A stretch of DNA of 61,846 bases, filler included, from Globobulimina sp. (GCA_003354225.1; 18 parts of 18 records of this genome joined end to end with filler, not necessarily neighbours in it); one strand, 5' to 3'; positions 5,271 through 61,756 are shown, counted from the whole stretch's first letter. Made by a program: numbers and translations. Notes: generated by a model from the letters alone, not told the origin.

Positions 5271-6888
5271 AATATTATAATAAGTACAATGTTACCGATG
5301 GGATATCATCTCAGCAACTATATGTGCTATTCCTTTTGGGAGAAATAACGCTTCGCTGCCAATTGAAAATATGGTCTGCTTTTGGCAAATTCAATCGAAT
5401 TCAAAGCTGGTAAATCTTCAAAAAACAATGAAGATTTAATAACATTCTGCGGTACCAAACAATGGAATAAAATCAACAATACATATTATTGTATGTAAAG
5501 GAACTCAAATTAATAAACATGTATGCGTTATCATCTAAATATCCAGTGAGTGCAACAATCATTGTCTGTGATATAATCTTATGAATTATGATGTACAGAT
5601 TGTCATGAATATAATTGGATGCATCATATAATAAAATTAATGTCTTTTTCTTCATAAGTAAGACTCCCAACAATAGGGTCCTAAATTCAAATCACAAATT
5701 CAAATTTACAAGCACTAAATGTTTTTTTCGTAATTGCAGATTTTAAAATTCTGCTAAATTAATAGCTAAAAACAACTAAATAAACAGCATAGTTAAGTTT
5801 ATTTTGCTTGCAATTTGTATGCGCGCATATGAATATTGACCTTCAATTTATACATGGCACATAGCATTAATCCGGAATGTGATGTTAAATCAACAATCGA
5901 CAAACACGGTATGCATCGCAAATATCATTACTAACAAACGGATAGATGGCAAATAACTTATCCATCTATAAAACAGTTGCAATCCTCACTGCCATTTGAA
6001 CACTTTGTCCAAATTGAACGTAGTAATATATAGCATCAGGAAGTCGTGTGGAGAATATTGGAATGGATTAAAATAAGAATTAAAAAAAAAAAATCAACAA
6101 CAACAATATAAACAGTAATCACGCATCCATTAAAACCAAATATTCACCATTGATAATCCTAGCAACGAAATTAAAACACATATCTATTATCTCATACAAA
6201 CATCATTAAATTCAAGGATACAACAATTATATAGTGAATTGAAGCGAATTAGATTCAACGCGATATACGTATTCTGTCAAGCATTGCCATTTAAAACATT
6301 AATTTGCGCATTCCAAGAAGAAAAAGTGAATTCATCAGAGACAATTTAATGATTCAAGATCAACGGCTATTAATCTTTCGTCAAACATTCGCCTATTTTT
6401 ATTTATTAGCATTGGTTGTTCTCGCCGACGTAGTATTATCGACGCAGCAGTATATACATACTGTCAAGTTGAATTTTTTTTGAGTTTATAATTCAATTTT
6501 ATCCATATTTTATCGGACCAGAACGAGAGTCACAAAGAGAGACATTTACTGTAAATACATACCACGTAATTGAACAATTCACAACAGACGCAATACAAAC
6601 ACCAGAAATTATTAGTATCATACATACATATTTATTCCCAGAAATAGAGTCTTCGACAATTATATTATATTTTTGAGGCCATCAAATCTGAGACGCAAAC
6701 CCATTTTAATCGTAACAGAAATATCATATTATCAATAGTCAGGAGGTAATAAGGCAAAATAATGAAATCACTCAACAATGTCGCAAATNNNNNNNNNNNN
6801 NNNNNNNNNNNNNNNNNNNNNNNNNNNNNNNNTTAATTAATTAANNNNNNNNNNNNNNNNNNNNNNNNNNNNNNNNNNNNNNNNNNNN

Positions 6889-20955: not shown

Positions 20956-23926
20956 TTAATTTATTGAAGTATCAAAATCAAGTCGAATCTCTTTCTCATT
21001 GTCATTATCAATGCATTTTAAATCAACAAATACTCGGATTGTTGAATCGCCAAAGAAAAATCTCACCGGAATTGAATCATTTTGCTCTTGCCATCCTTTT
21101 GGTAAATTATATTCCTTTTTAGCACATAATTTTGAATTTTTACCATCATCATACGTAAAAACTGGATTAATTTCATCAGATTCATACAATTTAATTATCA
21201 TTTTATCAGCATTTTTATCCGAAGGTTCAAAATAAAATACTTTGGGTTCATCCTCTAATCTTATAACATCATTTTTTCTTACAAATGGAAGAAAACAATT
21301 ATTCACCCATTGATTATTGTCGATAGTAATAATTTGATCATCCTTAATTTTAATATTTGGGTAAGATCTCATAAATTGATATAATGATTTTTGTATTGAT
21401 AATCCATACGTTTTTGATACGGTTCTACTTGAAATATAATCCGGTCGTTCTCCATACCGAGCTGCGCCATCCACGACGCATAAAATGGGTCTTTTGGGGG
21501 TTAATATTTTCACTTTGAACCGCGAAGATGGGCCAAATTCATAAAATATTTTCGATTGTAAATATTTTGATTCACTAAAACCACCAACTAAACAAATGTA
21601 TTTTATATCTTTAATTTGGGATAATAAATATTTGCAATGTTCAATTATTTTATCAATTATCAAATCAAATAAATATCGAAATATTGATTCTTCAAAATAT
21701 AACTTATCTTTATCGGATTTTATTAAATGTGCAAACTGGCCAAATAATTTAAAATTTTCTAAATATAATTGTATCCATTCATGCTCCTTCATATCATTGT
21801 CACTGTCACTATCATCATTTCCTTGCATTCCTTTTTTTAACACGCGTCGGGTATCCCTTTCAATGCATTTTCCAATTTCTTCCACAAACTCAAACGGCAG
21901 CGATACGTCATGGAATTTTCTTTCTTTTTTGCTTTTGTTTTGCGACGCATATTGTATAAAAGCCATTGAATTCATGGTAAATATCTCCACATTATTTCTA
22001 TAAAAATTGTCATCAAATCGTCGCGAATCCACATCGACACCAAATTTAAATCTCTCTTTTCTAAATCTAAAACTTCGTAACAACTTTACATATTTGTCGG
22101 GATATTTCTTTTCAAAGTTATCGATCCATTTTGCTTTAAAGATTTTGCGTATTAATTTCTCAAACTCTTTATCAATATACGCGGAACCCCATGGTCCACC
22201 GCCTAAATATATGCATTGGATAAACAGTGAAAAGCAAATGAATAAACAATGAAAAATAAAACCAAACTGGGCGCACGGATCTGTTTTACATGGAAGGCAT
22301 CCAGAATTTCATGGGATGCACAATCTGCTGTACCACCGCCTAAATCTAACAATAAATACCGATCACTCACATTGAATATAGTGCCATGCGTCTTATTCTT
22401 CTTATTATATTTCGTACTCATATCTGAATAGGAGTTACGGATCGATATGGAAGCACAATCGGGTTCATACGCAATTAATAAATGATTTTCAATGTTCTTT
22501 TTTTTATTGATCATGCCTGCGTTTTCTGCACATCTTTCCATTATATATTTTGCTTTATTGCTCCATATTGCTGGCACACTGACAATCCATTGAATTTCCT
22601 CGATATCTGTAATAAAATATGGCTTCTTTTTCACAATACTCATTACTTTATCTTTCATGAATCGCAATGCGGCAATCAATATCTTTGATGATGAATAGGT
22701 TCGGCCACCAACAGCACGAATACTTTCTGCAATGTCACATTTATTATCATCCTCATTCTCTTTGTCTTCCTCTTTACTGTCTGCAGCTGCTGCATTGACA
22801 TTCGATTGATTAATATGCGAACTATGTTTATATAACAACATTTTAAAATGTTCAAAAAACATTGGAGCATTGTTAGCCTTTTCCTCATCATAATCACTGT
22901 CATCACCACTGCTTTCCACAGCATTTTCAGCTATATTTGAATATAGATCGGCAGCATCACTCCCAAAAGCTAACACCTTGCCATCTTTTGGAGATATTAA
23001 TATATTTGTTTTTGTTTTTGTATTTTGTTTGTTTGAGCCCCATTGATGGATTAACACTTTGTTTGTCTGGGGGTTAAGGAGTGAAATCGCTGAACCATCC
23101 GTACCAAAATCAATACCGCAATGAACTTTAAAATTTCCTTTGCGATTAATTTTGAAAGGTCTATACACTTTTTCTTCCTTTTCGTCTTTTTCTTCTTTGA
23201 TACGTAATGCGCATTCAATGGATCTCAACACGGACGGAAATAATGCAGCGATATCTGGTATTTCCATTTGATTCACTTTTAAATCGATTGCAAGTCCGTC
23301 CGAGATCATAATTTTTATAAATTTATCGACATGCGATGTTTTTGCACCGATACAATATTCAATTCCTTTATTTTTAATTAATTTCAATATATCATTATGA
23401 TCGGCGTCATTGACATGTTTATCTGGATATCGATCCAATTTTATTCTTTCTTTATCCGATAATTTATATTCCATTTTACTTTGAATAAATGAGTTATTAT
23501 AATCGTCTATATCATCATCACTCGATTCGTCCTTATCATCGTCTTCTTCTTCCATTGACATCATTTTACTCAATGTAGATAGCATAGAATCAATTTGTTG
23601 TATTTTTGTATCAAACAAATCATGATACATTGTACCATGGGGTGGTGCATCACAGATATGATATAATATTTTTATTGGCGCAGTCCATTTGAGATTAATT
23701 GCGGTTTCTAATCCGCCCAAAACATCCTCTGCTGCGTCATCGCCGCCTTCCTCTTTTAAATTGGATACAAATCTTTCAAATAATGGAATGTCTGTGGTAA
23801 AGGGTAAAGTTTCTAATCGTTCACCGTCGCCAATCCAATCTCTATATGCTACAAATGCAACACGAAACGCATCAATACCAAATTGATAACGCGATTGACT
23901 GATTATTTTACCAATATCTTCCTTTA
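20956..23926 (-). CDS. vWA domain fused to HSPA12-like (atypical Hsp70) domain, 5'-truncated; intron 22203-22267
   Basis: vWA: FVAYRDW, GGDDAAEDVLGGL, ICDAPPHG. Hsp70-like: GIDFGTDGS, WIVSVPAIW, AYEPDCAS, LDLGGGTAD, spliced PSGGPWGS, LVGGFSESKYL, VVDGAA. Confidence 0.85.
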
Positions 23927-24101
23927 CTGTTTTGTTATGTGACATGCGTTGTGTGCTGATTGTTTTGTCATTGTGTCAGCACAGAACAGAAAGTCAGAAA
24001 CNNNNNNNNNNNNNNNNNNNNNNNNNNNNNNNNNNNNNNNNNNNNTTAATTAATTAANNNNNNNNNNNNNNNNNNNNNNNNNNNNNNNNNNNNNNNNNNN
24101 N

Positions 24102-32090: not shown

Positions 32091-34325
32091 TCATAAATAC
32101 CATTGCTCCTTTTCTACTTTACTGACAAACCAATTATCATTTCCATCTCTTTTAGAGAATGCAGTGACTTCTTGTTGTTTAAATCCATAATCAGGATAAT
32201 TATGTCCTTCATTTGAGTGTAAGGTATGATTCGTTCCACAATGAATTAATTTAATGACTTGTAATTTCCAATTATTATTTCTGTCCCGTTTATTCCAATA
32301 ACATGTCACTTCTTGTTGTTGTTTAGAAAGTGCTGAAGGATATCCATTGTGTGAATGTAAATAGTTCCCAGTACAAAAATGTTGTAATGATATAATATCA
32401 CCATTTTTCACTTCTTTTTGCCATAATTGCAACGACTCTTTCTGTTGATAATGAGGTTTAACAACCCACCAATCATTCACATCTTCTCTACTAAAACAGG
32501 TAACTTGTTGTTGCTTTGAGCCGTTTGGATAGTTTGCTTTATGAGAGTGCAATCGATATTGAGTTTCAAAATGTTCTAATTTAATACGACTCCCATAGCT
32601 TACTGTAACTCTCTTATTCATATCAATTAAATCATTCTCAGATAACCAGGAGCTGCCACCACTATCATTTAGTCCCCATGAGAATGAATTATTTGCTGAT
32701 GTCTTGGTCGTTTCTTCTTTGTCAGCATTTTGTTTTGAATCACCACCATCAGAAAATGACCACGCTGTGCCCCACCAAAATGCGTCGCCATTGTCATTGT
32801 TATTATCATTCTCGTTATTGTTGGTTATATTGCCTGAAAAATTAAATGCTGTCGCATTGCCACTATTATTGCGACCAAAGAGATTTGTTCCTGGATTATT
32901 ATTTGATTTGTTATTAGAGTCAGAACCAAATATATTGGATTCATTATTATTGTTATTAGTGACAAAATTCCAAGCAAATACAAATGCATTATCGTCATTA
33001 TCGTCATTATCGTCATTTTCTTCATTGTTGTTATTATTATTTTGTACAATAACATCCCCATTCTCATCAAATTGCATTTGTTCAATCTCCTGAATCGATA
33101 CAAACGGTTTGATATCATTTTGATCCACTTTATATTTCGTAATTAATTTCTCATACAAGCGTTGTAACTGTGCGTAGGAGGAACTATATTTTTGCATTAA
33201 TTTCGCAATTTTGCCTATTGCCTGGGGCGCATATTTCAGATATAACTGCTTAAAATATCCGCAGTATAATTTCTTATATTTATCAAGAATATGGATTGGC
33301 ACTTCTTCATTTGGCACATTATGGTCAAATATGGCCGCACTTAATGCAGCTTTTTCCTTCTTTTTACTCACTGGTTTTGACACAATATTTGCTGATTGTT
33401 TATTATCAGTATCAGTATCATCCGGTGTCTGTACTGCCGGCGCATCATTCTCATCATCGGCAAATGTTAATATTGCGCTGATATCGGCAATAGAATCATC
33501 GTCGTTGTTACCACAGAATAATTTCTTATATTTATCAAGAATATGCATTAGCATTTCATCATTATCAATCGGAATGGATGTACGCATAATGGCTAATAAC
33601 TGCTTGTCGTTATAATTAGTATCATATGGTATGATATTAAAACAGCCAATGTTTAGTTTATTGGTTAAAATATATACAATGGGTACGGGCGGCAACGTAT
33701 TTTGATCAGTCTCCAAATCCATACATGCGACGGTATTCGTATAATCAATGCCGACATCACATACGTTGCCATTATCTCGATCCTCGTCGTAGTCGTACTT
33801 CACCACAAATCCTTTGGTGTCCAACACGTTGCGGTTCGCATCATAGACACTTAGCATATAATCATATCGACAGCAAAATATTAAATAATCCAATTCACCG
33901 CCGATGTACAGCGATTTGATACCCTTGAAATCGTTATTTATCTCATTCAAACCGGTGTGCTCACATAAGACACATTGCACTGCTTTGAAATCCAACGAAT
34001 CGTATTTGAAAATGCAAAAATAAGGGAGGTATTTATCAGCGGTTTGCGCCGATTGTACGCCATAATGGACACAAATGGAATTACAGCCTTTCATATCAGT
34101 GATTAAATAAGGAATGGTTTTGTTGCTGGATTTGCTGTGTTGTTTGTTGATATTAACGGAGTGGATGGCGTGGTATTCGCCGCTTATGCTGTATTTATAA
34201 ATAATGACGAAACCATTGGCGAGACAGACTGCGAATATATCCTTGGACAATACTTTAATTTCTGTGATTATATCATGTGGAATGTTTGGAATTGGACTGT
34301 ATAATGTTTCAATATAATCATTATT
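32091..34325 (-). CDS. Nup214/Nup159-like propeller end, Asn-rich FG-like linker and C-terminal MIR domains; 5'-truncated
   Basis: GIDYT...LPPVPIVYILTN..GCF resembles the end of the Nup214 N-terminal domain; IFG/LFG/FSWG in N-rich spacers; three LHS(H)...QQ(Q/E)VT...W MIR repeats. Confidence 0.7.
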   Translation of the reverse strand, partial: NNDYIETLYSPIPNIPHDIITEIKVLSKDIFAVCLANGFVIIYKYSISGEYHAIHSVNINKQHSKSSNKTIPYLITDMKGCNSICVHYGVQSAQTADKYLPYFCIFKYDSLDFKAVQCVLCEHTGLNEINNDFKGIKSLYIGGELDYLIFCCRYDYMLSVYDANRNVLDTKGFVVKYDYDEDRDNGNVCDVGIDYTNTVACMDLETDQNTLPPVPIVYILTNKLNIGCFNIIPYDTNYNDKQLLAIMRTSIPIDNDEMLMHILDKYKKLFCGNNDDDSIADISAILTFADDENDAPAVQTPDDTDTDNKQSANIVSKPVSKKKEKAALSAAIFDHNVPNEEVPIHILDKYKKLYCGYFKQLYLKYAPQAIGKIAKLMQKYSSSYAQLQRLYEKLITKYKVDQNDIKPFVSIQEIEQMQFDENGDVIVQNNNNNNEENDDNDDNDDNAFVFAWNFVTNNNNNESNIFGSDSNNKSNNNPGTNLFGRNNSGNATAFNFSGNITNNNENDNNNDNGDAFWWGTAWSFSDGGDSKQNADKEETTKTSANNSFSWGLNDSGGSSWLSENDLIDMNKRVTVSYGSRIKLEHFETQYRLHSHKANYPNGSKQQQVTCFSREDVNDWWVVKPHYQQKESLQLWQKEVKNGDIISLQHFCTGNYLHSHNGYPSALSKQQQEVTCYWNKRDRNNNWKLQVIKLIHCGTNHTLHSNEGHNYPDYGFKQQEVTAFSKRDGNDNWFVSKVEKEQWYL

Positions 34326-34425
34326 NNNNNNNNNNNNNNNNNNNNNNNNNNNNNNNNNNNNNNNNNNNNTTAATTAATTAANNNNNNNNNNNNNNNNNNN
34401 NNNNNNNNNNNNNNNNNNNNNNNNN

Positions 34426-37489: not shown

Positions 37490-37766
37490 TCTAGGATACC
37501 GTCGTTGTTTCTCTCTTTCTCTCCCAATCGTCCATAAAACGCAATGGCTGCCAAAGCTAATATTGTATATGCTGTTGGTAGTAATATCGAAGGTGAATTC
37601 GGTGTTGGTAATTCACGCCAATTTAAAGAATTAAGTGATTTAACATGGAGTCATCAGATCAATGTAACTCAAATATTTAATGGTGGTTGATTTACAATTT
37701 ACAGAGATGATAAAGATACGTTTTATGCAGCTGGAAATAATGAATATGGCACTTGTTTAGAGCAGA
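37490..37766 (+). pseudogene. RCC1-repeat gene fragment with in-frame TGA
   Basis: YAVGSNIEGEFGVG...GG*FTI...FYAAGNNEYG parallels the N-terminal repeats of the 48585 protein. Confidence 0.65.
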
Positions 37767-48584: not shown

Positions 48585-49943
48585 ATGTCCGTAGTAATGT
48601 CGTTTGCATTTCATTTGTTACTGATTGACGGCTATATTGGCGAAATTGAGCGCCAATCGTCTCTTCAAATGCCCAGCAGCATATGCAAATTGATCAAAAC
48701 ATTTTATCCTCTGTTTAAAGTATATGCAATTGGTAGGAATGATAATGGTCAATTTGGTTTAGGACATGGTCAATGTCGTCCTCTACATAAATTCAAGCAA
48801 TTACACAAATTCTCTCAACTAGTCACAAATGTAGAGGATATATACTGCAACAAAGGAAGATTTATCATTAAAACAATGAACAATGGATTATATGCTGCAG
48901 GCACAAATATTTTAGGACAATGTGGCTTGTCATTAGAACGCCGACGTTACACAAAATTCCACAAATTAAAATTTGCTCCAAATTGTACACCAGATGTTGT
49001 CAGCTGTGGTGCATTTAACAGACACTCATTCATTACCACTCTCAGTAAAAACAGTAGCAATCCCTATATGTTATTTGCTTGCGGTGGCAACGCCTCTGCC
49101 CAATTTGGTAATGGTTGTAAAACAACGGAATATCAAAGAAGTACTTGGACATTGATCAAACATAATTTCACAGCTCCCATCCGAAAGATTGTGTGTTCTG
49201 ATCAACATTCTCTGTTTTTGTGCACCGATGGCCGACTGTACAGTTGCGGCGATAACGAATATGGCACACTTGGTTTAGCTGAACATATCTCAGAAACGTT
49301 TGTGCCAACACAAATTATAAAGCAACAACGCATTATCGATATGGACTGTGGCATGTGGCATAATCTTTGTGTTGATGCACTGCATAAAGTATGGGTTTTT
49401 GGCGCTAATTTCTTTGGCCAAATTGGGTATTATGTGACGGAGAATATGAGTGAAGGATATTTATGCTTTAATCCGAGAATGAATGAGTTCCTCAAAGATA
49501 AAGACATATATCGTGTATTGTGTGGAAGCACTCATTCTTTGTGTATGGCCTTGGATGGAAATGTATATTTATTCGGACACTCGAGTCTGGGACAGATTGG
49601 TGATGGTGTTGCGAGGGAGAGAAATAGCACCGATGGGCATGGCGTGTTTATGCCATATTCGTTTCATTCAAATGATAAGTTTAAGCATGTAAATATTATT
49701 GACGCCTCTTGCGGAGCAAACCATAATGTCTTATTGTCGACAGGTAACAAAGTGATTACGTTTGGCGATAACAAATATCGTCAATGTTCAGCGGTGCTGT
49801 TTGAAAAAAATATTGAAATAGTTACTCGTCCATATGTGCTATTGCTGAAAGATATTGGTATGGAGAATAATATGGTGATTGAAAAAGTGTTGGCTGAAAC
49901 AAATTCGACATTGGTCGTAGTGAGTGCCTTCAAAAAGTGTTAA
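48585..49943 (+). CDS. RCC1-repeat beta-propeller protein with N-terminal helical module
   Basis: Repeated G.N..GQ.GLG and CG..H.L motifs. Confidence 0.9.
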   Translation: MSVVMSFAFHLLLIDGYIGEIERQSSLQMPSSICKLIKTFYPLFKVYAIGRNDNGQFGLGHGQCRPLHKFKQLHKFSQLVTNVEDIYCNKGRFIIKTMNNGLYAAGTNILGQCGLSLERRRYTKFHKLKFAPNCTPDVVSCGAFNRHSFITTLSKNSSNPYMLFACGGNASAQFGNGCKTTEYQRSTWTLIKHNFTAPIRKIVCSDQHSLFLCTDGRLYSCGDNEYGTLGLAEHISETFVPTQIIKQQRIIDMDCGMWHNLCVDALHKVWVFGANFFGQIGYYVTENMSEGYLCFNPRMNEFLKDKDIYRVLCGSTHSLCMALDGNVYLFGHSSLGQIGDGVARERNSTDGHGVFMPYSFHSNDKFKHVNIIDASCGANHNVLLSTGNKVITFGDNKYRQCSAVLFEKNIEIVTRPYVLLLKDIGMENNMVIEKVLAETNSTLVVVSAFKKC

Positions 49944-49973
49944 TATTTAAGTTATTTATAAATTATAATAGAG

Positions 49974-50825
49974 TTACACAGTATTGTCCACTTTCAAAAA
50001 TATGAACTGACGCGTCCAAGGCGTCCTTCTCGATTCGATGAAATCGAAATGAGTGTCTGGATAATATGCGCAAATTGATTTTATTAAAGCAAGTTTTTCT
50101 TTGCGATCTTTGGCTCCTTCACATTGTAAATATAATACGCCACCTTTTTTTAATCCATGGCCAAGAACAGTAGTTCGAACATTTGCATTTGGCACAGTTT
50201 CGTCATATTTTAATAGCGGCATCTCATCAAATATAACATCAAATGTTTGCATTTCGTTGGCGTTTAATTTGAATGATTCTATTTCTCTTTGTTCAATCTT
50301 TAAATCGCCATCTTCAATCAATGTAACATCAATTTCTTTTCCTTCAAATGTATCTTTTTCCTGTGTAATGTTTGCATTTCTCATTTTAAATCTGCTCTCA
50401 ATGAATTGCTCCGATGATTGAGGCACAGCAATACCGCGAATGCTATAATTTTGTTTTAATAATTCGTCAATTAAATAGGATGAGGTTGCTTGCTGAACAC
50501 AGGGTGTTACAATGGCTTTGCGTTGGTAAGCAAGAGATTTCTGCCCTTGTATATATGGCACTGCATCAAAATCATAATCACCTTCATGGTCAGTCATATG
50601 TGCAGTAATTTGTTCATCGAGCCATTGAAGGGTCCGTTCTCCCCAAACATTGGAAAAATTACATTTCGATATTGGAAATAATAATGCCTTTGGACTTTGA
50701 AAACGAATGGAAGATTTTCCTCTGTTTTGGAAATGGCAAAAGGAAGATGAACAACGAATCGTTTGTAACGAAGAGGATTTGATTATTCTTGAGAATGCAT
50801 TCAATATAATGCTCTTTTGCAACAT
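49974..50825 (-). CDS. Probable mitochondrion-targeted protein with methyltransferase-like C-terminal strands
   Basis: Arg/Ser-rich acid-free N-terminus; TFDVIF and LKKGGVLYL. Confidence 0.5.
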   Translation of the reverse strand: MLQKSIILNAFSRIIKSSSLQTIRCSSSFCHFQNRGKSSIRFQSPKALLFPISKCNFSNVWGERTLQWLDEQITAHMTDHEGDYDFDAVPYIQGQKSLAYQRKAIVTPCVQQATSSYLIDELLKQNYSIRGIAVPQSSEQFIESRFKMRNANITQEKDTFEGKEIDVTLIEDGDLKIEQREIESFKLNANEMQTFDVIFDEMPLLKYDETVPNANVRTTVLGHGLKKGGVLYLQCEGAKDRKEKLALIKSICAYYPDTHFDFIESRRTPWTRQFIFLKVDNTV

Positions 50826-50893
50826 GATGAATTTGAACGAGGTTTTTAACTTTTAAGCAAAAAACTATGTTAAAAGAAACAAGGAAACATTTA

Positions 50894-51528
50894 TCATTTT
50901 GTTAGGTTCAATTTTGGTAAATGAACATTTGTTTGTGATTGTGCTGCTTTACAGATCGGCAATGAATGTGATTTATATATTTTTGGAGGTTGACTAAGTC
51001 TTATTTGAGCTGATTGATTGGTTGCATTATTAGATTTTTTTTCAAGCAATTTGCAATATCGTGTGGTATAAATAATATTTGGGCAATTCGAGGTTTGCTT
51101 ATTTCTTTGCCTATTTTTCCTTATGTTTGAATGTAGTGTCCAATGTTTTTGTATTGTATTTAAATAATTTGATTGAATTCCAGACAATCTTCTTTTCAAT
51201 TTTTCATTTTCTGCATCAATTATTTTTTGTTTTTGTACGATTGAACCGGATCTTTTTTTATGTCGATTCGAATTCTTGTAAGTATTATTTCTTTTGTTTT
51301 TATTTTGCTGTCTGATGCCATTCCATGAAGCAACAGAATGTGTATTTATACTCGAACTATGTGTTGGTGATAACGAATGCGATGTAGTTTTTGCACTGTG
51401 GTTTTTAGCGGAATCAAAATCTAATATGATTTGATTGGTTTTAATATTGGTTTGCAATGATTTTTGAAAATGATGCAGAGAAGAAACAGATGCTGATCTT
51501 GTCCGTAAATGTTTGGCATATGGCGATA
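50894..51528 (-). CDS. Basic low-complexity protein C-terminus, possible CFAP97/Hemingway-like helix
   Basis: QKQKIIDAENEKLKRRLSGIQS; 5'-truncated. Confidence 0.4.
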
Positions 51529-51644
51529 NNNNNNNNNNNNNNNNNNNNNNNNNNNNNNNNNNNNNNNNNNNNTTAATTAATTAANNNNNNNNNNNNNNNN
51601 NNNNNNNNNNNNNNNNNNNNNNNNNNNNTGTCCAAAAAAAAAAA

Positions 51645-52661
51645 ATGTTATTATCTATAGCTTTCAATATGATATTATGTATATTAATCACTACACTTTT
51701 TATAAATGCAATGAATACCGGAATGTACCCAGTTTGGATGAGTCCATTAACTGGTTTCTTATGGAGTTGTTCTAAGATGGCATTATTTTATATGTTTCAT
51801 GGAAAATTATATTATTCCTTTACAGGATCTTCGTTCAAATATAAATCGGATCGATTTAAAGCTTGCAACTTTGTTTTAACAGTGACCTTTTTATTTTGTC
51901 TTTGTTATGAATTTTTAATACAAATATTTGGTGCAAATATCGATATTATTTCATTGTTTATTGGTTACAATATATTCCGATTAATATTTTTGATTTCAAT
52001 CATTTATATTTTGGTTCTATTTAATCAGAGATTGTATGGTATCGCAAAAATAAACGCTTCGACAAAAGATATGGAATTAACAGCAACAATCGCAACAGGA
52101 CCGAGTTCAGAGTGTGACTGTGAACAGCAACAAAATGGAAACGATGTTTTCATGGAGCTATTAATCAGAAACAGCATATTATGGTTTTTTGTGTTAATAT
52201 CAAATTTGTTGAATGGTTTGATTTGGATTATTGGAGCAAACATATTCGATGAACAATTTATATATTTATCCATAGCGTATTGTTTCACCGCAATTGATGC
52301 CGCAATAAATACCTCCTGCATTCTGTTGGGATGCCCCATTTGTTGGTATTATTATAATTTATGCTGTAAAAAGAAAGAGCAACATACTTTCGGTGATAAA
52401 TACTGCCAATTGTGCTGTTTGGCGATTTCTGAAAAAATACAAAATATACAAAAAAAACCAACTACGGAGCAACATAAAACAAAAACAAAACATAGTGAAA
52501 TAAATATTGTTTTGCAATTGGAAAATGCGATAAAAACTAATCAGCAAAATAATGACGTTGTTATTGGCGGTGTACATGAAGCAATGGAACTGGACTTGAA
52601 TTCAAAGAGTGTGAGTTTGATTGGAAGTTTCAATGAAGAACATGCAGCTGAAAACATTTAA
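51645..52661 (+). CDS. Multi-pass 7TM/GPCR-like protein, probably 5'-truncated
   Basis: Six or more hydrophobic helices, IDAAINTSCI in the last helix, YYNLCC tail; same style as the 9199 protein. Confidence 0.65.
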   Translation: MLLSIAFNMILCILITTLFINAMNTGMYPVWMSPLTGFLWSCSKMALFYMFHGKLYYSFTGSSFKYKSDRFKACNFVLTVTFLFCLCYEFLIQIFGANIDIISLFIGYNIFRLIFLISIIYILVLFNQRLYGIAKINASTKDMELTATIATGPSSECDCEQQQNGNDVFMELLIRNSILWFFVLISNLLNGLIWIIGANIFDEQFIYLSIAYCFTAIDAAINTSCILLGCPICWYYYNLCCKKKEQHTFGDKYCQLCCLAISEKIQNIQKKPTTEQHKTKTKHSEINIVLQLENAIKTNQQNNDVVIGGVHEAMELDLNSKSVSLIGSFNEEHAAENI

Positions 52662-53022
52662 TTTTATGAATCTGTTTTATTTTGTGTTTTTGTGAGAAAT
52701 ATTTACAAATATATTTACAATATAATTTATAACTTATTATTATGACGTTATAATATAATTAAAATGATATAAATACTGCTTTCGTATACGGTATACCATA
52801 TGCAATAATTACAAGCAGTGTTCATTGTGAATTTTATTTTTGCCTAGTTTGGTTTGGTTGTGAAGACTAAAGGACAATAATCCGATTTTGCGTAAACATT
52901 CTGAGCTGTTTGTATGAAATACGTTCTAGTCTAATAGTTTTTGAAACAAAATTGTTTTTGTGTCCCCCTAAAAAATCTTCAAAACTTTAAGAAATGCTTT
53001 CTACAAGTTTCTAGTTAAAAAA

Positions 53023-54022
53023 TTATTGTGGTAAAATAGGAGTTAATGTATTCACATCACATTGCGCGAGCATCATAATATTCCATGCAACCGCATATTC
53101 CTCCAACCATAATGTTTGATTATTAACATATGATTCAATTTGTTTTTGTGTCTCAGTACGTATCGGACACTCAGAATAAGCACATGACACTTTACCATCA
53201 GCTTGATTCACATCAAGCAAATTCCTATAAATACAAACATCAGAATTAAACATAAAAAATCCATTACTTTCCCATTCATACATACTATTCGCTGCCGCTG
53301 CTTTCTGTGCCCATGGTAAGCTAATGATGAATGAATAAAATTGATTGTCTAAACGCGTTGGGTTTGCAGTCCATGGCAAAGTATCAAAGCCAGAGGCCGT
53401 GGAATGTGCAAAACCCAAAGTATGACCACCTATCAATGCGATATATTGCGGCTGAGTTAAATTGAACACTGTGCCAAAAAACTCAGACTGAGCGGATAAA
53501 CCTTTAATTGCGTCGGGAAACGGCATCTGTTTTTGTAGCAATCTGTTTGTGAGTCGTATAGCGTATATAATATAATATAAATACCACAATTGTTTGATTT
53601 GGCGATGTGGGGCACGCTTTGCGCCCGGTCCAGAATCTAAATTGCGGCACAAATGAACCATCGGGAATAGCTATCATATTTCCCACCGTACTGGCTATTG
53701 TCCAAAAATCTGCTAAATTGGCAATCTTTGTGGACCAAACAATGCCCGACGGTAAATTTTTATCGCTGAATAAACCAATGGTTGCATTGTATGTTGGTGC
53801 AAGACCTGCATTTGGAGGATTGTATAAATTGATACAGCCATCGCAGCCAGTCACACATGTATGGAATCCATATCGCACTAAATTGCCCACAGTGAATGGG
53901 TCTGCAATATTTGCTAAATAATATTCGATGTCTTTTCGTAAATCCACTGTAATTTCTTTATAGGTTACAGCAGCATTTATTGACGAGAAATAGAGCGTAA
54001 AGGATAGGAATTGTGCTAACAT
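53023..54022 (-). CDS. Secreted non-animal heme peroxidase (APX-related); intron 53527-53584
   Basis: Signal peptide, distal LVRYGFHTC..GCDG, ADFW, proximal ALIGGHTLG and LDNQFY. Confidence 0.9.
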
Positions 54023-54074
54023 TATGTCTAGTTACTAGTAGTGGGTCAAAATTTAGTCAGAAACTCACAGACTG

Positions 54075-54356
54075 ATGACTGCAAAGGAGGATTCATTTGA
54101 AAAATGTCACATGACATTTCAAGAACTATATCCTCCGTGTACACATCCCTCAAAATTAAAACAAGATATATACGCTTTTAAAATACAGCTGAACCTCAGC
54201 AAACTGTGGAAAGAATTGGGATTATTAAAATGTTACGAATTGTTGATTTATGGATATATGAGACATGAAGCACAAAATTATCATAGATTCAATGACATAC
54301 TGTGCATTCTATACAATTTTTATCCTTCGTACATAATTTATTCAAATCGCAAATAA
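54075..54356 (+). CDS. Small ORF carrying the LLIxGY...FY module
   Basis: LLIYGYMR...DILCILYNFY; may be a first exon or remnant. Confidence 0.45.
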   Translation: MTAKEDSFEKCHMTFQELYPPCTHPSKLKQDIYAFKIQLNLSKLWKELGLLKCYELLIYGYMRHEAQNYHRFNDILCILYNFYPSYIIYSNRK

Positions 54357-54429
54357 ATAGAATATCATTTTATATTCACCATCTATTTTATAAGTTCTGA
54401 TGTTGATCAATTCTTAAAAGGATTTTTAG

Positions 54430-54519
54430 TTACATTTGACTTTTTAGTCAAGAATACTAAATAACATTCTTGACAAAAGAAGTGTTTAGAAGTGTGAACC
54501 TAAAAAGTCATTTGTAATT
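54430..54519. repeat. Fold-back element containing the 47-nt dispersed repeat
   Basis: TTACATTTGACTTTTTAG / CTAAAAAGTCATTTGTAA outer arms (2 mismatches) and GTCAAGAAT / ATTCTTGAC inner arms. Confidence 0.7.
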
Positions 54520-54577
54520 TAATTAAGCAAAAAAAGCAATCAAACATTGTTGGGATTGCAGATGGTGCGATCAACAC

Positions 54578-54968
54578 TTAACATTCGTACATAATAAAGT
54601 ACAGAGCTACTGCAATAGTGATCGCTTCAAAAAAAATTGTCTCGCATACAACCAACAATATAGATTTTCTGGTGACTTGTTTAGGATTATCTGATGGAAC
54701 GTTCACGATCTTGTTGTACAAGATCCCGGAAACGGTTTTAAATACAACAAAAATTGCAATTAAACCATAAGAAATCCAGACATGTTTACCACATTCAATT
54801 CTTTGTAATAGAAATCCAATTAACGAGCAAACACACATTGCACAACCAACACCATGTACACTTAGCATTTTCTGTGAAAACTCATCCCCATAAAATGAGC
54901 TAAGTGTAACCAAACCAAATGCAGCAACGAGTTGTAGTATTAAATGAATTGCAATGTTAAAATTATTT
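54578..54968 (-). CDS. Multi-pass membrane protein, C-terminal part
   Basis: Three to four hydrophobic helices; open to the contig edge. Confidence 0.5.
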
Positions 54969-55415
54969 NNNNNNNNNNNNNNNNNNNNNNNNNNNNNNNN
55001 NNNNNNNNNNNNTTAATTAATTAANNNNNNNNNNNNNNNNNNNNNNNNNNNNNNNNNNNNNNNNNNNNATTTGATGCTATTTGGTTGATATCCAACTTTA
55101 GATGTCCATAAATTGCCCTTTGTGTTTATAATCGATAGAGTGTAGAATATTTATACTCAAACATATTAAACATATACCTATGGGAAATGTTTTATTGAAT
55201 AATTTTTGTTATAACTTATATGGAAACTATATAAAATTATGAAATTATACAAAGTTTAAAATTGAAAATGAGCAGAAATTAACAAAATAATTATAATTTT
55301 GCTGAATATAAACTACCTTTTAAAGCAACGGTATCTATACGAAACCATATGAAGGGATGAGCTCTGACCCCAAAGATAGTGTGAAAAACCTTGCTTAATT
55401 TGTTAAGTCTGTTGC

Positions 55416-58407
55416 ATGGCATCTGACAAACAAAACAGCCCTGAACACATAGAAGTTATAGCACCGTTATTGTCCAGCACTGTACCAATGAATGAACCAT
55501 ATGAACTACTCAATGGAAACGATGTTGACAACAACAATAACAACAACAACCAGAACATAGAACAAACCACGCATGTAATCCACAACAAATTAGGCACAAT
55601 CAACGGCTGCTACGTGCCATGTTTGTTGAACATTATGGGTATAATCCTATTCGAGCGTTTAGGATGGGGCATCGGCCAAGTTGGTGTAAGTGGAGTGTTG
55701 TTAAGTAACCAATGCATAAACCTCTGCTCAAAACCAATCGCAAAATCGCAAAATCAACACAAACACAGTGCAATCTTTCTAATCGCCGAATTCCAGGCAA
55801 TAATCACTGTGCTCTCTCTCTCCGCCATTGTCACCAATGGCAATATGCGTGGCGGGGGTTCATATTATATGATATCACGTACATTAGGCCCTGAATTCGG
55901 TGGCTCGGTTGGTTTATTATTTTATGCGGCGTACTGTGTGGGAGTGGCCTTTTACTGTACTGGCTTTGCAGAGGAATTCGTCGAGACTTGGTATCCCGAC
56001 TACAGTGGCTACCGCAGGAAATGGTTCACCATCCTCTATGCCAGCATTGTGTGCGGTGCCTGCTTAGCCATTGCCATGGCGGGAGCCCGCTACTTCACTA
56101 AGATCAATGTCTTGCTATTTTTCTGGCAGTTTTTAGGAATATTCATCGCGTTGTTGGCAGTTTTTTTTCGTGGAACTTTCCAGCTCGGAAATCAAGATGC
56201 GGTTTGCAACGAGGCCACGGGCGAATTGTTTAAACATTATTCCTGGAAATGGCCGCAATTCAGTGAGATGTGGTCCTTTTCGTGCGAAAACTGCAAGAAT
56301 TTCCCAAGTTAGGTCGTATTTGCTGGTTTTCAATGATGTGGCGAGTCCATCTAATTCCGTAAATAGTGGATAACATTTCCAGTCCATATCGGATGTTTTT
56401 AGTGTAAATAAATCACAAAATGCGAAGCATTTTGATCAACAGCAATGTCCATACAAACAGCTACAGCTCATTCTAATGCAACTTTTGTGATTCATTTATC
56501 TAACCAACATAACGTATAACATCACGTCGTCAATACTTATGCATGCACTATACAGCCACTTTCGGCGTACTGTTCCCCGCAGCAACGGGCATAATGGAAG
56601 GAGCCAACCTCAGCGGGGATTTGGCCAATCCGACCTATTCCATCCCAGTGGGCACGCTGTCGGCAGTGGGCACCGCCATATTTTTCTATGTCTTATTGAT
56701 AATTGCCATGGCTGGCTCCTTCAACCAATGCACATTGCGCGAAGATACCACCATAATGCAAGAGTCCGCCTGGGGCGACGTGGGCACATATTTGGTGGTG
56801 GCGGGCGTGATGATATCCGCCTCGTCCTCTGCTTTGGGCTCACTGTTTGGTGGCAGCCGCGTGTTGCAAGCAATCGCGAGGGATAAGTTATTTCCGTACA
56901 CCAGATGGTTTGAGTATGGCTCGTCCAAAGGCGATGAACCTCGCACAGCAGTGCTGTTTACATGGATCATTGCGCAGTCGCTAATATTCATAGGTTCCAT
57001 CAATGCCATCGCGCCCATTTCAACCTCGTTCTTTTGCTTATCATATTGCACGGTGAATTTCAGCTGCTTTCTATTGGAAATCTCGGGCACGCCCAATTTT
57101 CGACCGTCCTTCACTTATTATACGTGGCATACAGCTTTGTTGGGCACTGTGTCCAATTTGGCGGTGATGTTTTTCGTGGATTATAGGTTTGGTTTCGCGG
57201 CGTTGATCTGTGAGATTGCAGTCTTTGTGTATTTGGCGTACAGAGCTCCGCAGAATGTATGGGGCGATGTGACGCAATCGATAATATTCCACCAAGTGCG
57301 CAAATATTTGTTGCGTTTGGATTCGCGCAAAGCGCATAGCAAGACCTGGAGACCGAGCATATTGTTGTTGGCAGATTGCGAGTTGGAACATATTGCTTTG
57401 ATTGACTTTTGTAACAATTTGAAAAAAGGCGGTTTGTATATCATTGGCAGTACAATTCTCGGCGATTTTAATGACAATGTGTTGAGGTTGAAGAAGATCA
57501 AAGATGATTGGCTCGAGTTTGTGGACAGGAACTCATTGAAAGCGTTCCCGCAAATTGCTGTTTCCAATGCGTTGCGCAGTGGTTATGAAAATTTGATATT
57601 GTTGTCGGGTTTAGGTGCGATGGAGCCAAATACCATTGTTTTGCCAATGCTGCGCTTGCGAAGACACAAAGAGGAGCATCACAAAGCCGCAGAAGAGGAG
57701 AAACACGAAAAAAGCGACTCGTTTGATATGTCGATACCGGAAATGGACCGTTCCGGACCCTTTTTAGAAGCATTTAAAAACTTAGTAATGTATGTTTGTT
57801 ATATTCCTATTTTTTAATAATATTTGTGTGATGTAACAATTTTAAGGTCAAGTCCGGCTGAAATGGACCCGGTGGAATACGTGAAACTGTGTGGCAACAT
57901 CTTGAAATTCAACAGAAACATTGTGATGACCGCAAATATGTATGCCTTGGATTTCGAGCTGGTTGTCTCGCAAAGCATTGCCCAGGTCATTGAGGAAAAA
58001 AACAAAAAGAGAAACCCGGCATCGATTAATATCGTAAACAAAGGCAGTTTGCAAGTGAATGCTTCCGCAGTCGACGATGCGTTGGAAAGCAATGCGAATG
58101 ACTCCAATTCCCGGTCGTCAGTGATTGCGAGAGCGCACGCGTCCACATCGACCATTACCTCTGTCAGTAAGTTGAATTCGCGATATTGGACCTTTGCGTC
58201 GCAGAGTGCCGCTGGTCTGAGGAACCAGTGGGTGGACATCTGGCTGTTTGCGGACGATTATACGTTTAATGTGGTGGACAGTGTCAGTATGAAAGATGAA
58301 GGCTTTCCAATGCTGATCATGCAATTGGCGCATATATTGCTGCAGAATAAGGTGTGGGACAAAGCAGCGGGTTTGAGGGTGTTTTTGTTGGTGAATAGCA
58401 AATGGAG
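55416..58407 (+). CDS. Cation-chloride cotransporter (SLC12, SLC12A9-like), 3'-truncated; introns 55700-55768, 56308-56555, 57790-57846
   Basis: KLGTINGCYVPCLLNIMG, GGGSYYMISRTLGPEFGGSVG, FPAATGIMEGANLSGDL, PNFRPSF and HQVRKYLL. Confidence 0.95.
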
Positions 58408-58507
58408 NNNNNNNNNNNNNNNNNNNNNNNNNNNNNNNNNNNNNNNNNNNNTTAATTAATTAANNNNNNNNNNNNNNNNNNNNNNNNNNNNNNNNNNNNN
58501 NNNNNNN

Positions 58508-59556
58508 ATTCAAGCAACAAATATGGAGCATTCAGCATATTTTTCACATCAAATATGGTTGATGTTCATATCAATTCATTCATTAATTCCATTCAATTTG
58601 TTGAGTCATACAGTAACCAACAGGCAAATGGAAAGTTATTGTATTTATTATTTTTGTTGGCTGTTATATTTATTGTACTGTTATCTGTATATATTTATTG
58701 GAAGAAACAATATTCGCATGCTTTCATAGTGGATAACGCCTTGGTACTATTAATTGGCATTTCACAATTTGATAATAAGGAAGCTCATCTGCCCGGAGTC
58801 AAAGCATGCATCGATACTTTAATTGATTTATGGAGAAACAGCTATAATTATGATGTATTTGTATGCAATGAAAGCTCGTTATACGCAAAGAAGAAAGCAA
58901 TAATTAAATTTGTGGATACCAGTATAAAAAGAATGAGAAATTGCGCGTATAATTGTGTTATTGTACATGTCATATCGCATGGCTGCAAAGGTGTATTCTA
59001 TGGATCAGATTTGCGATATCCCATTGATTTGAGTTTTATTATACATGAGTTGGAGAGTAAAGCAGCAGAGTCTAAGAATATACAGTTATTGAAATTGATA
59101 TTCCACCATGGATGTCAGGGGAATGCTGATTATAGTTTCTCACCAACAAAAAAAACAATTCGTAATGGATTATTGAATATGTATCAATCAAAAGGAAACC
59201 TTAAGTATAATACTGAGAATATGTCATATGAATCAAATTTTGGAATCATTGCTGGGAATATTGAAGGTCGTGCAATGTCGGATAGTGGTCGGTTTACACA
59301 ATGTATATTTGATTCATTCAAAGCCAATTTGAATAGAATGATAAAATGGAGTTTGGATGCACTCATAAAAGAAATTCGTCGCAATTTAGAATCTGTAACC
59401 AATCATTCTGAATTGGTTACAGTGGAAGAGAATATTTGTTATGACACTATCAGATTCGAAAAGGCACATTCAATGCTTTATAATCCTGTTGAAATGGTTC
59501 AAGTGACAAATTTTGCAGAAGACACCCAAGACAGCTCCGATTCGGAAATACCATAA
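58508..59556 (+). CDS. Single-pass membrane protein with C-terminal caspase-like (peptidase C14) domain, 5'-truncated
   Basis: TM helix LLYLLFLLAVIFIVLLSVYIYW then KK; NALVLLIGI, ISHG and KLIFHHGCQG; frame open to the contig edge. Confidence 0.8.
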
Positions 59557-59773
59557 TAAATTGACTTCGACAATGATATATTACTACAATCTTGCCGTAT
59601 TTTTATTACATTTAAATAATATATTACTATATATTTTTTGCTGACTTAGTTCAACAATATGTTTCTAAATAATCCAAGTACAGACACTAATTTCAGAATA
59701 GAATTTGAAACACCTTCCGTTTCTGCATTGCGAGATGTTTCGACTATGCATTACAAAAAACACCAAACATAGT

Positions 59774-61756
59774 TCATCTGTCCGTATTTAACATTGGCAT
59801 GCCACCATCTGTCATTCCACTATATATCTGAGAAATAAATGGTATCCATATAGTTTCCAGCTCCTTTCTCTTAGAATCAAATTCTTCCATTCCAGCATTT
59901 GGATTTGCATCAACCCAATCTATGCTATCTTTCACTGCATCAAACATTCTCCGACACTCTTTATCATTGATTGCATTCCTAATTCGTTCCTCATTCATTG
60001 AGTTTCGCATTTTATAAACAAAATTTTCCAATTCATTTTTAGCAGACATTTTCCTCCTTTGAACTGCTTCTTTTTTCTCCCAAATCATAACCTCATCAAC
60101 CATTTCTTGAATTTGTTTCTCAGTCAAGCCAACAGTTTTAGATTCAAGTTTTATTGCAGAAATGCCAAAATCTGACAATATTTTACGAAGTGCACCCATC
60201 TCAATAATAATACATTTAATACTTTCCGGTATGTACAGCAAAGATTTCATCTTTCGAACATACCCATCCATAACCATCGAACTTAAAATAGCATCACAAT
60301 TTGCAGAAATAGATAACATTCCACTGTCATCAATACAAAACACAACATCCACCACAGAACCTTTAGGTGCTGCAGGTATCTCACTCAGTCGATATTCACC
60401 AAACAGATGTTCATCATTATTTGTCTGGTCCTCACTTGCAAAAACCTTAAAGGGAGCAAAAAAACTTTGATTATCTCTCATCGTTTTAAATGGTTTGATC
60501 ACAGTACAAGGAATGTGCATTCTGCGGCTGATAACCTCTTGTGTTGCTACATCAGCAGTCATCATAGAAACAGGAGTCACTGTAATGTCATTTATGGTAT
60601 GTTTATGCGTATGTCGTAGTGCTGCACCTCGTGCCACACCTTCATCCACATTAATGCTCCGATTTATATCTGTGATTTTCGTGCCAACAAAATATCTCCC
60701 AACTAGCTGTTGAAAAAATGCGGCTCTGCACAATCCACCAACCACTAAAACATCATCAATCTCAGATTTCAATATTCCTGCTTCATCCAATGCTGTTTGA
60801 ATGTAATTAACACAGATTTCAAATGTTTCCCCACATAATGCCTCATATTTGGCCTTGCTCAGAAACCAACAAACATCGATATTGTTGTATAAAGAATCAA
60901 TTTCCACACAAGCTCTGACAGTATGAGACAATGTGCGTTTTACTCGCTCGCAGGCGGTCTTTAATCGTCTCATTGCTCTGTCGGAAACTCTTAAATCCAT
61001 TTTGTGTTTTCTTTGGAATGTATCGGCAAAATAATTCACCAAAATAGTCTCAATATCATCCGATCCCAGATCTGTGTTACCTGCAGTCGCAATTGCTGTG
61101 ATGGCAGTTTTGTCGATTTGAATTACAGAAACATTGCACATTCCGGCACCGAAATCTATGACAACTACAATGCCGACAAAGCTATAGTTTGTATCATGTG
61201 CATAGGTCATTGCAACAGCTGTTGTTGAATTGATAAGTTGGACTGCAGTCAATCCTGATATTTGTGCTGCGTCCATAATGGATTGACGTTGTGAGTAATT
61301 GAAATTGGGTGGAACTGCAATGACACAAAGCAGTGGTTTATGACCAACATATTGATAAGCCATAGTTTGTAGATATGATAGTATCATCGCTGCGATTTGT
61401 TCCGGATAAAATGTTTTTATTTCTTGGTTTATTGTAAGTTGATATAATGGAGTATTTTGTGGTGATTTGATTATATTAATTGGCACTGATTTAATGTGTT
61501 TTTGCACGGCTGGATCGCTATATTTTCTACCCATTATTCTTTTGGTGTTAAATGGTGTATTTTTTGCATTTCGTGAGGACATTGCTTTCGCGGCAGAGCC
61601 AACCAATCGCTCATTATCACAAAACGAAACGAATGATGGTGTTGTCCTTTCTCCCATGTCGTTTGCTATGATTTCAACAAATTGATCAATTACACGTACA
61701 CTTCCAACGCAACAATATGCGGTCCCGAAATCGATTGCAAAAGATCTAGACGACAT
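59774..61756 (-). CDS. Highly divergent cytosolic-type Hsp70
   Basis: IDFGT, IIANDMGERTTPS, RRLKTACERVKRTLS and AKNELENF; catalytic motifs altered; no EEVD. Confidence 0.92.
   Translation of the reverse strand: MSSRSFAIDFGTAYCCVGSVRVIDQFVEIIANDMGERTTPSFVSFCDNERLVGSAAKAMSSRNAKNTPFNTKRIMGRKYSDPAVQKHIKSVPINIIKSPQNTPLYQLTINQEIKTFYPEQIAAMILSYLQTMAYQYVGHKPLLCVIAVPPNFNYSQRQSIMDAAQISGLTAVQLINSTTAVAMTYAHDTNYSFVGIVVVIDFGAGMCNVSVIQIDKTAITAIATAGNTDLGSDDIETILVNYFADTFQRKHKMDLRVSDRAMRRLKTACERVKRTLSHTVRACVEIDSLYNNIDVCWFLSKAKYEALCGETFEICVNYIQTALDEAGILKSEIDDVLVVGGLCRAAFFQQLVGRYFVGTKITDINRSINVDEGVARGAALRHTHKHTINDITVTPVSMMTADVATQEVISRRMHIPCTVIKPFKTMRDNQSFFAPFKVFASEDQTNNDEHLFGEYRLSEIPAAPKGSVVDVVFCIDDSGMLSISANCDAILSSMVMDGYVRKMKSLLYIPESIKCIIIEMGALRKILSDFGISAIKLESKTVGLTEKQIQEMVDEVMIWEKKEAVQRRKMSAKNELENFVYKMRNSMNEERIRNAINDKECRRMFDAVKDSIDWVDANPNAGMEEFDSKRKELETIWIPFISQIYSGMTDGGMPMLNTDR

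Follow-up and report, generated by a model that had tools for sequence, protein, structure and literature searches.

A short conserved module carried by RCC1, SPRY, TLDc and Hsp70-type proteins in an under-sampled lineage of eukaryotes is a candidate docking hairpin

One short peptide pattern that stands ahead of an RCC1 propeller in one gene, in a small open reading frame (ORF) in another and inside an Hsp70 in a third raises the question of what such an element is, and what it does for proteins that are otherwise unrelated. The pattern was picked out by a sequence-only reading of the stretch of DNA analysed here (the window), a length of 61,846 bases from assembly GCA_003354225.1, recorded as Globobulimina sp., in which 18 contigs of ~3.34 kb each are separated by N spacers, giving 60,350 non-N bases. 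As set out below, the pattern belongs to a module family that is real, conserved and combined with unrelated domains. We think it reasonably probable that the module is a self-contained docking or oligomerisation hairpin, by which binding domains would be linked with one another or with a partner that they have in common.

The three clear copies that had been claimed lie exactly where the sequence-only reading placed them, including the string MVMDGYVRKMKSLLYIPESIKCIII at residues 494-518 of the Hsp70. A hidden Markov model (HMM) was made from 37 database copies of the module, excluding the window sequences and every RCC1-linked copy. Run with filters off on the six-frame translation of the window, it recognized all three; the domain expect values (E) run from 3.6e-11 for the RCC1 copy to 7.4e-5 for the Hsp70 copy, and the best remaining match in the window stands at E 2.1. 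The independence of this model is imperfect, its database copies having been recruited by a profile that included the three window copies; those database copies are sharply conserved among themselves. Because DNA identity between the window copies is just 46-58% in global alignment, the copies do not represent a recent DNA repeat, and the direct repeats that flank copies 1 and 2 amount to an 8-mer at chance level or to none. Two weaker traces, proposed near 6600 and 37490, did not hold up: the HMM has no match at either place, and positions 37538-37687 contain the start of an RCC1 gene that is free of the module. This second RCC1-type gene, on the + strand at a contig end, opens with its propeller (MAAKANIVYAVGSN... 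/ MAAKANIVYAVGSNIEGEFGVGN...), which indicates that the module is optional among the RCC1 proteins of this genome.

A search of 1,835,955,588 representative proteins with a profile of six sequences, three of them the window copies, returned 43 proteins at E<=0.001, a cut-off for which a 38-position profile needs ~35 bits in a library of this size, and 42 of these show the same motif. The remaining one, P0027, was rejected as a bacterial Cna_B repeat protein matched on a short LMPESIKVLIK stretch. A word-index search with the module profile found four proteins only and contributed P0019, so that the family set used here comprises the 42 true matches and P0019, 43 proteins in all. Their consensus of ~35 residues reads LLIxGYIRExEK, followed by 4-9 variable residues and IPxxIxxIIxxFYP. 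Across 46 aligned copies the core glycine is invariant (46/46), with the tyrosine kept in 44/46, the arginine in 40/46 and the isoleucine in 41/46; the I-P pair is nearly as constant (I 43/45, P 44/45), and the II that follows, the F/Y-Y and the FYP are strongly kept. If the family is delimited by a G-Y-[IVM]-R core, I-P and I..II..FY within ~35 residues together with an HMM match, the window copies all match the HMM, copy 2 is without the I-P pair that is near-invariant elsewhere, and copy 3 is without the terminal FYP. The nearest protein relatives are found only among ENA, Logan and EukProt records. Scans with single-peptide patterns, which are weak evidence of absence, gave 61 matches in JGI metagenome contigs, 93 in IMG/VR viral contigs and 13 in GTDB prokaryote genomes, none of them confirmed. 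The family is a shuffled one, of a poorly sampled eukaryote lineage, and it is apparently undescribed; a literature search at the level of listings found no published description of the module.

What the module is attached to varies widely. In 39 of the 42 true matches the module starts no later than residue 30, the internal cases being P0024, P0026 and P0047 alone; P0021 and P0025 carry two copies each, in tandem, with acidic linkers between them, and apparently stand-alone small proteins consisting mostly of module also occur, many of the records being short and possibly cut. BLASTP clustering of the sequence that follows the module divided the 43 family proteins into an RCC1 group (n=7), a group of six that includes P0050, a TLDc group (n=5), a further group of four and the pair P0019 and P0034, with 11 singletons and eight tails too short for classing. 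Pfam supports RCC1, SPRY (P0050) and TLDc (P0049, P0052) as partners, and the AlphaFold2 model of P0019 (mean predicted local distance difference test score, pLDDT, 65.4) resembles the SPRY structures of TRIM67 (E 1.1e-8), TRIM9, HERC1, Ash2L and SPSB. The junction between module and partner domain is tight, as in FYP, two or three residues, and then the first strand. These carriers, together with the Hsp70-type proteins described below, bear out the claim of a module that recurs on unrelated proteins. Four relatives (P0003, P0018, P0028 and P0037) begin MGxxxS, the usual context for N-myristoylation, and some family members may be anchored to membranes.

The RCC1 gene of the window has the module at the N-terminus, directly ahead of the propeller (Table 1). 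Pfam finds an RCC1-like domain (E 4.1e-51) and RCC1 repeats (E 1.2e-34) in its product, and the AlphaFold2 model, with a mean pLDDT of 88.2, forms a beta-propeller from residue 44 onward. The same order, module and then RCC1 propeller, is kept in the relatives P0001, P0003 and P0020. In another RCC1 relative, P0010, the segment ahead of the propeller (...SILTDELIVLICEYYAVYAIG) is like helix 2 of the module only, without the GYIR helix, and this N-terminus may be a divergent or half module.

The copy within Hsp70 occupies an internal position. The carrier is a cytosolic-type Hsp70 with full nucleotide-binding and substrate-binding domains, and human HSPA1A matches it at E 1.6e-124 (phmmer) over residues 5-486 and 543-649. 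Between these blocks the alignment stops at 486/491 and restarts at 543/509, so that 56 residues stand in the place of 17, a net gain of ~39. The site follows the final strands of the substrate-binding beta domain and precedes the lid. The protein ends ...NTDR, without the EEVD that is the usual handle of Hsp70 for the ligase CHIP. A 10-nucleotide direct repeat flanks the insertion at a spacing of 147 nucleotides (49 codons) and is the sole direct repeat of at least 9 nucleotides in 60050-60420; against a background of 33 direct repeats of at least 10 nucleotides at spacings of 100-200 in the 60,350 bases, the chance of finding such a repeat at both edges of a given element is ~1 in 100-200 by a rough, post-hoc estimate. 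The repeat may have arisen when DNA was inserted or duplicated here; alternatively, it may follow from the recurrence of the peptide I-S-A. A word-index search with residues 450-600 of this Hsp70 gave 270 candidates, none of them significant. Three sequencing runs guessed to be RNA share about one tenth of the words of the contig, mostly on the gene at 58541-59613, with patchy coverage of the Hsp70 that carries no weight as proof. The best-covered part of the contig is a 333-residue ORF adjoining the Hsp70 (58555-59556, + strand), in which a caspase-like H...C pattern (HVISHG...HHGCQG) can be seen by eye.

A second Hsp70-type carrier is P0047, an Hsp70-superfamily ATPase of 686 residues in which the module occupies residues 106-137, inside the N-terminal lobe. 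Because this site differs from that in the window Hsp70, the module has been inserted at two different places in Hsp70-type proteins. P0047 is homologous (E 7e-15) to an HSPA12-like gene of the window. That gene, a large one at 20956-23975 (- strand) in two overlapping frames that imply an intron or a frameshift, encodes an HSPA12-like Hsp70-superfamily ATPase without the module, and its N-terminal part looks like a vWA domain by eye.

Copy 2 lies in a small ORF that stops nine residues past the module and matches no Pfam family. No frame that continues it downstream is present on its contig. The ORF may encode a small protein that stands alone, or it may be a copy that has decayed or been cut short.

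Table 1. Positions of the module copies, their carrier genes and associated repeats, counted from the first base of the window
Feature	Coordinates	Strand	Details
Module copy 1	48615..48710	+	Residues 11-42 of the RCC1 ORF, LLLIDGYIGEIERQSSLQMPSSICKLIKTFYP (LLLIDGYIGE...KTFYP); E 3.6e-11
Module copy 2	54240..54326	+	Residues 56-84 of the 93-residue ORF, LLIYGYMRHEAQNYHRFNDILCILYNFYP; E 5.3e-9
Module copy 3	60203..60280	-	Hsp70 residues 493-518, SMVMDGYVRKMKSLLYIPESIKCIII; E 7.4e-5, HMM positions 7-32 of 37
RCC1 gene, N-terminal module followed directly by propeller	48585..49943	+	ORF of 452 residues; RCC1 domains by Pfam
Small ORF ending 9 residues past the module	54075..54356	+	93 residues; no Pfam family
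Hsp70, cytosolic-type, module as internal insertion	59774..61756	-	660 residues; Pfam HSP70 PF00012, E 3.1e-124
Hsp70 insertion segment	60131..60298	-	Residues 487-542, opposite HSPA1A 492-508; phmmer alignment
10-nucleotide direct repeat, first copy	60154..60163	.	TTGCAGAAAT on the + strand, perfect
10-nucleotide direct repeat, second copy	60301..60310	.	Same sequence as the first copy

The sequence-only reading had also proposed that the module comprises two helices, and AlphaFold2 predicts a helix-loop-helix at modest confidence. In the RCC1 protein of the window, helices are placed at residues 14-25 and 31-40 with a loop between them (block means of pLDDT across the module, 51-66), and in P0019 at residues 4-23, 25-28 and 31-40. 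The module scores of ~50-66 in these two models compare with values mostly above 85 for the RCC1 propeller, a difference that would fit a unit not stabilized by its own partner domain. Conserved hydrophobic residues, at 12-13 positions, are spaced i, i+3/4 and i+7 on both helices. Since the module is found inserted in surface loops, its ends should lie close together, as they would in an antiparallel helical hairpin.

By sequence comparison with described domains the module belongs to no named family, and the sequence-only reading had been unable to assign it to one. The full-length proteins were compared with a 2025 copy of Pfam-A, as were the 46 isolated copies at E<=10, a limit to be read with the HMMER filters in mind, which discard most matches above E ~0.1. 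None of the 46 copies matches F-box (PF00646, PF12937), SOCS_box (PF07525), LisH (PF08513), RIIa (PF02197) or Dpy-30 (PF05186); no relevant Pfam family falls on the module in the full-length proteins, and the isolated copies give scattered single matches to unrelated families. When all PDB chain sequences were searched with the profile at E<=10, two meaningless matches were all that appeared, and a feature-based search with the module alone gave no usable match. The module may still be related, very remotely, to one of the described helical boxes, at a range beyond Pfam-model and PDB-sequence comparison.

Likenesses of layout are nevertheless easy to find. The F-box, a three-helix motif of ~45 residues, is the Skp1-binding box of the substrate receptors of Skp1-cullin-F-box ligases. 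Like it, the module is a short helical unit of a shuffled family that stands N-terminal to variable binding domains, SPRY and RCC1-type propellers among them; the N-terminal starts noted above place it ahead of RCC1, SPRY and TLDc alike. Unlike the F-box, it has two predicted helices rather than three, and its conserved LLIxGYIRE helix comes before the proline helix, not after; that proline helix, IPxxIxxIIxxFY, recalls the first F-box helix (LPxEIL..I). The SOCS or BC box, which binds Elongin B/C and Cul5, is likewise a helical box, ~40 residues in length, that occurs together with SPRY and other binding domains, but SOCS boxes are C-terminal, whereas the module is N-terminal or sits in loops. 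The H-box of DCAF proteins and DDB2, which binds DDB1, is a helix-loop-helix directly ahead of a beta-propeller, as in the RCC1 protein of the window; DCAF helix-loop-helices typically show little sequence conservation and accompany WD40 propellers, in contrast to a module that is sharply conserved and is also present on SPRY, TLDc and Hsp70. LisH and RIIa/DPY-30 domains, finally, also consist of two helices in ~30-40 residues, with faces dense in hydrophobic residues; they often stand ahead of propellers or SPRY domains, and they act by forming four-helix bundles. The pattern LLxGY...P.d.I..F/I..FY is reminiscent of the RIIa docking helix pair, but the module differs from these domains in its conserved motif, in matching none of their HMMs and in having no sequence match in the PDB.

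These likenesses suggest two specific functions. The idea put forward by the sequence-only reading, a lineage-specific ubiquitin-ligase adaptor, is a reasonable analogy drawn from architecture alone. On this view the module would be a substrate-receptor box through which a cullin-type ubiquitin ligase takes up binding domains and, in one case, a whole Hsp70 together with its clients. A short helical unit placed directly before RCC1, SPRY and other domains, with a tight junction, is what would be expected of a box working like the F-box, the SOCS/BC box, BTB or the DCAF helix-loop-helix. Extrapolated from n=3, with a very wide interval, the density of the module in these apparently arbitrary contigs (three copies per 60,350 bases) would amount to tens per megabase, and so to a large expansion of the kind usual for receptor families; the absence of a C-terminal EEVD from the window Hsp70 points the same way. 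The feature-based look-alikes listed for whole P0019 include clusters with F-box plus SPRY (0.91) and SPRY plus SOCS box (0.88), a lead only, driven by SPRY. Set against this are the failure of all 46 copies to match the F-box, F-box-like and SOCS_box models, the want of any relative among PDB sequences, the helix count and N-terminal placement just described, and an architecture that also suits other docking or dimerisation modules. We regard the ligase box as doubtful, and somewhat more so than the other proposal, itself unlikely, that the hairpins pack into a four-helix bundle in the style of LisH or RIIa/DPY-30 and so make their binding domains bivalent. Homo-oligomerisation of this kind would account for the 12-13 conserved hydrophobic positions, more, we infer, than a two-helix hairpin can bury by itself, and for both the tandem two-copy proteins and the small proteins made mostly of module, but it must contend with the absence of LisH, RIIa and Dpy-30 matches from all 46 copies and with an inter-helix loop that is longer and more variable than is usual in the LisH and RIIa/DPY-30 families.

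Two further explanations fare worse. The nearly constant N-terminal position, together with the four MGxxxS starts, could be read as a signal that sends the attached domains to a cellular site, be it a membrane, an organelle or part of the cytoskeleton, and not to a particular protein machine; such a role is improbable, for MGxxxS begins only 4 of ~45 proteins, internal loops of Hsp70-type proteins are unusual places for an N-terminal targeting peptide, and the conserved charged R and E suggest a specific protein contact. Least credible, and very improbable, is that there is no functional module here at all, the pattern arising by chance, from low complexity or from a DNA repeat in an AT-rich genome (the window has ~35% GC), and the Hsp70 copy being an unspliced in-frame intron. 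A GT...AG pair, in frame and 126 nucleotides apart, can indeed be drawn around most of the Hsp70 insertion. The insertion is, however, open through all ~42 codons, an outcome with an estimated chance of ~4% from base composition, and a 212-nucleotide contig of run X6 spans 60034-60245 without interruption and passes over the candidate 3' splice site, which is a hint only, X6 being RNA by guess; the intron is thus unlikely. The broader claim of an artefact is countered by the significance of the window copies under the window-free HMM, with nothing else below E 1, by 42 related proteins elsewhere and by the low DNA identity between copies.

We therefore return to the docking hairpin as the account we favor. 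The module would fold as a self-contained antiparallel helix-loop-helix hairpin and serve as a protein-protein docking handle, by which RCC1 propellers, SPRY and TLDc domains and the portion of Hsp70 that binds clients would be tethered to a common partner or to one another; it would have spread by domain shuffling in one protist lineage, and would be portable enough to work at the N-terminus, in tandem, possibly nearly alone and within surface loops of two Hsp70-type proteins. Docking as the function, and whatever partner it may involve, are inferred, and several observations weigh against this proposal. The pLDDT of the module is low to moderate, which leaves the fold itself uncertain. The database copies are metagenome and transcriptome proteins, many of them fragments, so that stand-alone forms may be truncated genes; 43 matches are few for a supposedly expanded family, though the bit score demanded by so large a library is high. 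Finally, the copies in the small ORF and the Hsp70, each without one conserved element, may be decaying rather than working.

The coding content of the window is of eukaryotic type, with RCC1, Hsp70, class I aldolase, WD40 and SLC12-like transporter proteins encoded in long ORFs with standard stops, the transporter gene being interrupted by likely introns. At 53023-54022 (- strand) a haem peroxidase of the plant/fungal/bacterial class can be discerned by eye in two overlapping frames, probably split by an intron, with peroxidase-like motifs (...GFHTCVTGCDGC... and ...IGGHTLGFAHS...). An ORF of 760 residues at 32091-34373 (- strand) contains long Asn/Asp-rich low-complexity runs, and its C-terminal repeats (..YRLHSH..YP..) look MIR-domain-like by eye.

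Many eukaryotic binding domains are wired to a single machine by short adaptor boxes such as the F-box, the SOCS box and BTB, each of which gave rise to a field of its own, and the module behaves like such a box, being sharply conserved, portable and present on RCC1, SPRY, TLDc and Hsp70-type domains. A bolder view, which we hold to be less likely than either the ligase box or the four-helix bundle, would make it the receptor box of an adaptor system so far unrecognized, in a protist lineage that is uncultured. It would then do the work of an F-box without detectable homology to it, would be carried by a few per cent of all genes and would be built into Hsp70-type chaperones, whose clients would pass straight to the machine that the box serves, be it a ubiquitin ligase or a different hub; the 10-nucleotide repeat would mark its pasting at the DNA level. 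If the module is only a dimerisation hairpin, it would still be a clean new domain family worth a database entry, of modest wider interest; if a partner is found, the family would establish a new way of wiring proteins in a little-known group of protists and would include a chaperone that has its adaptor built in.

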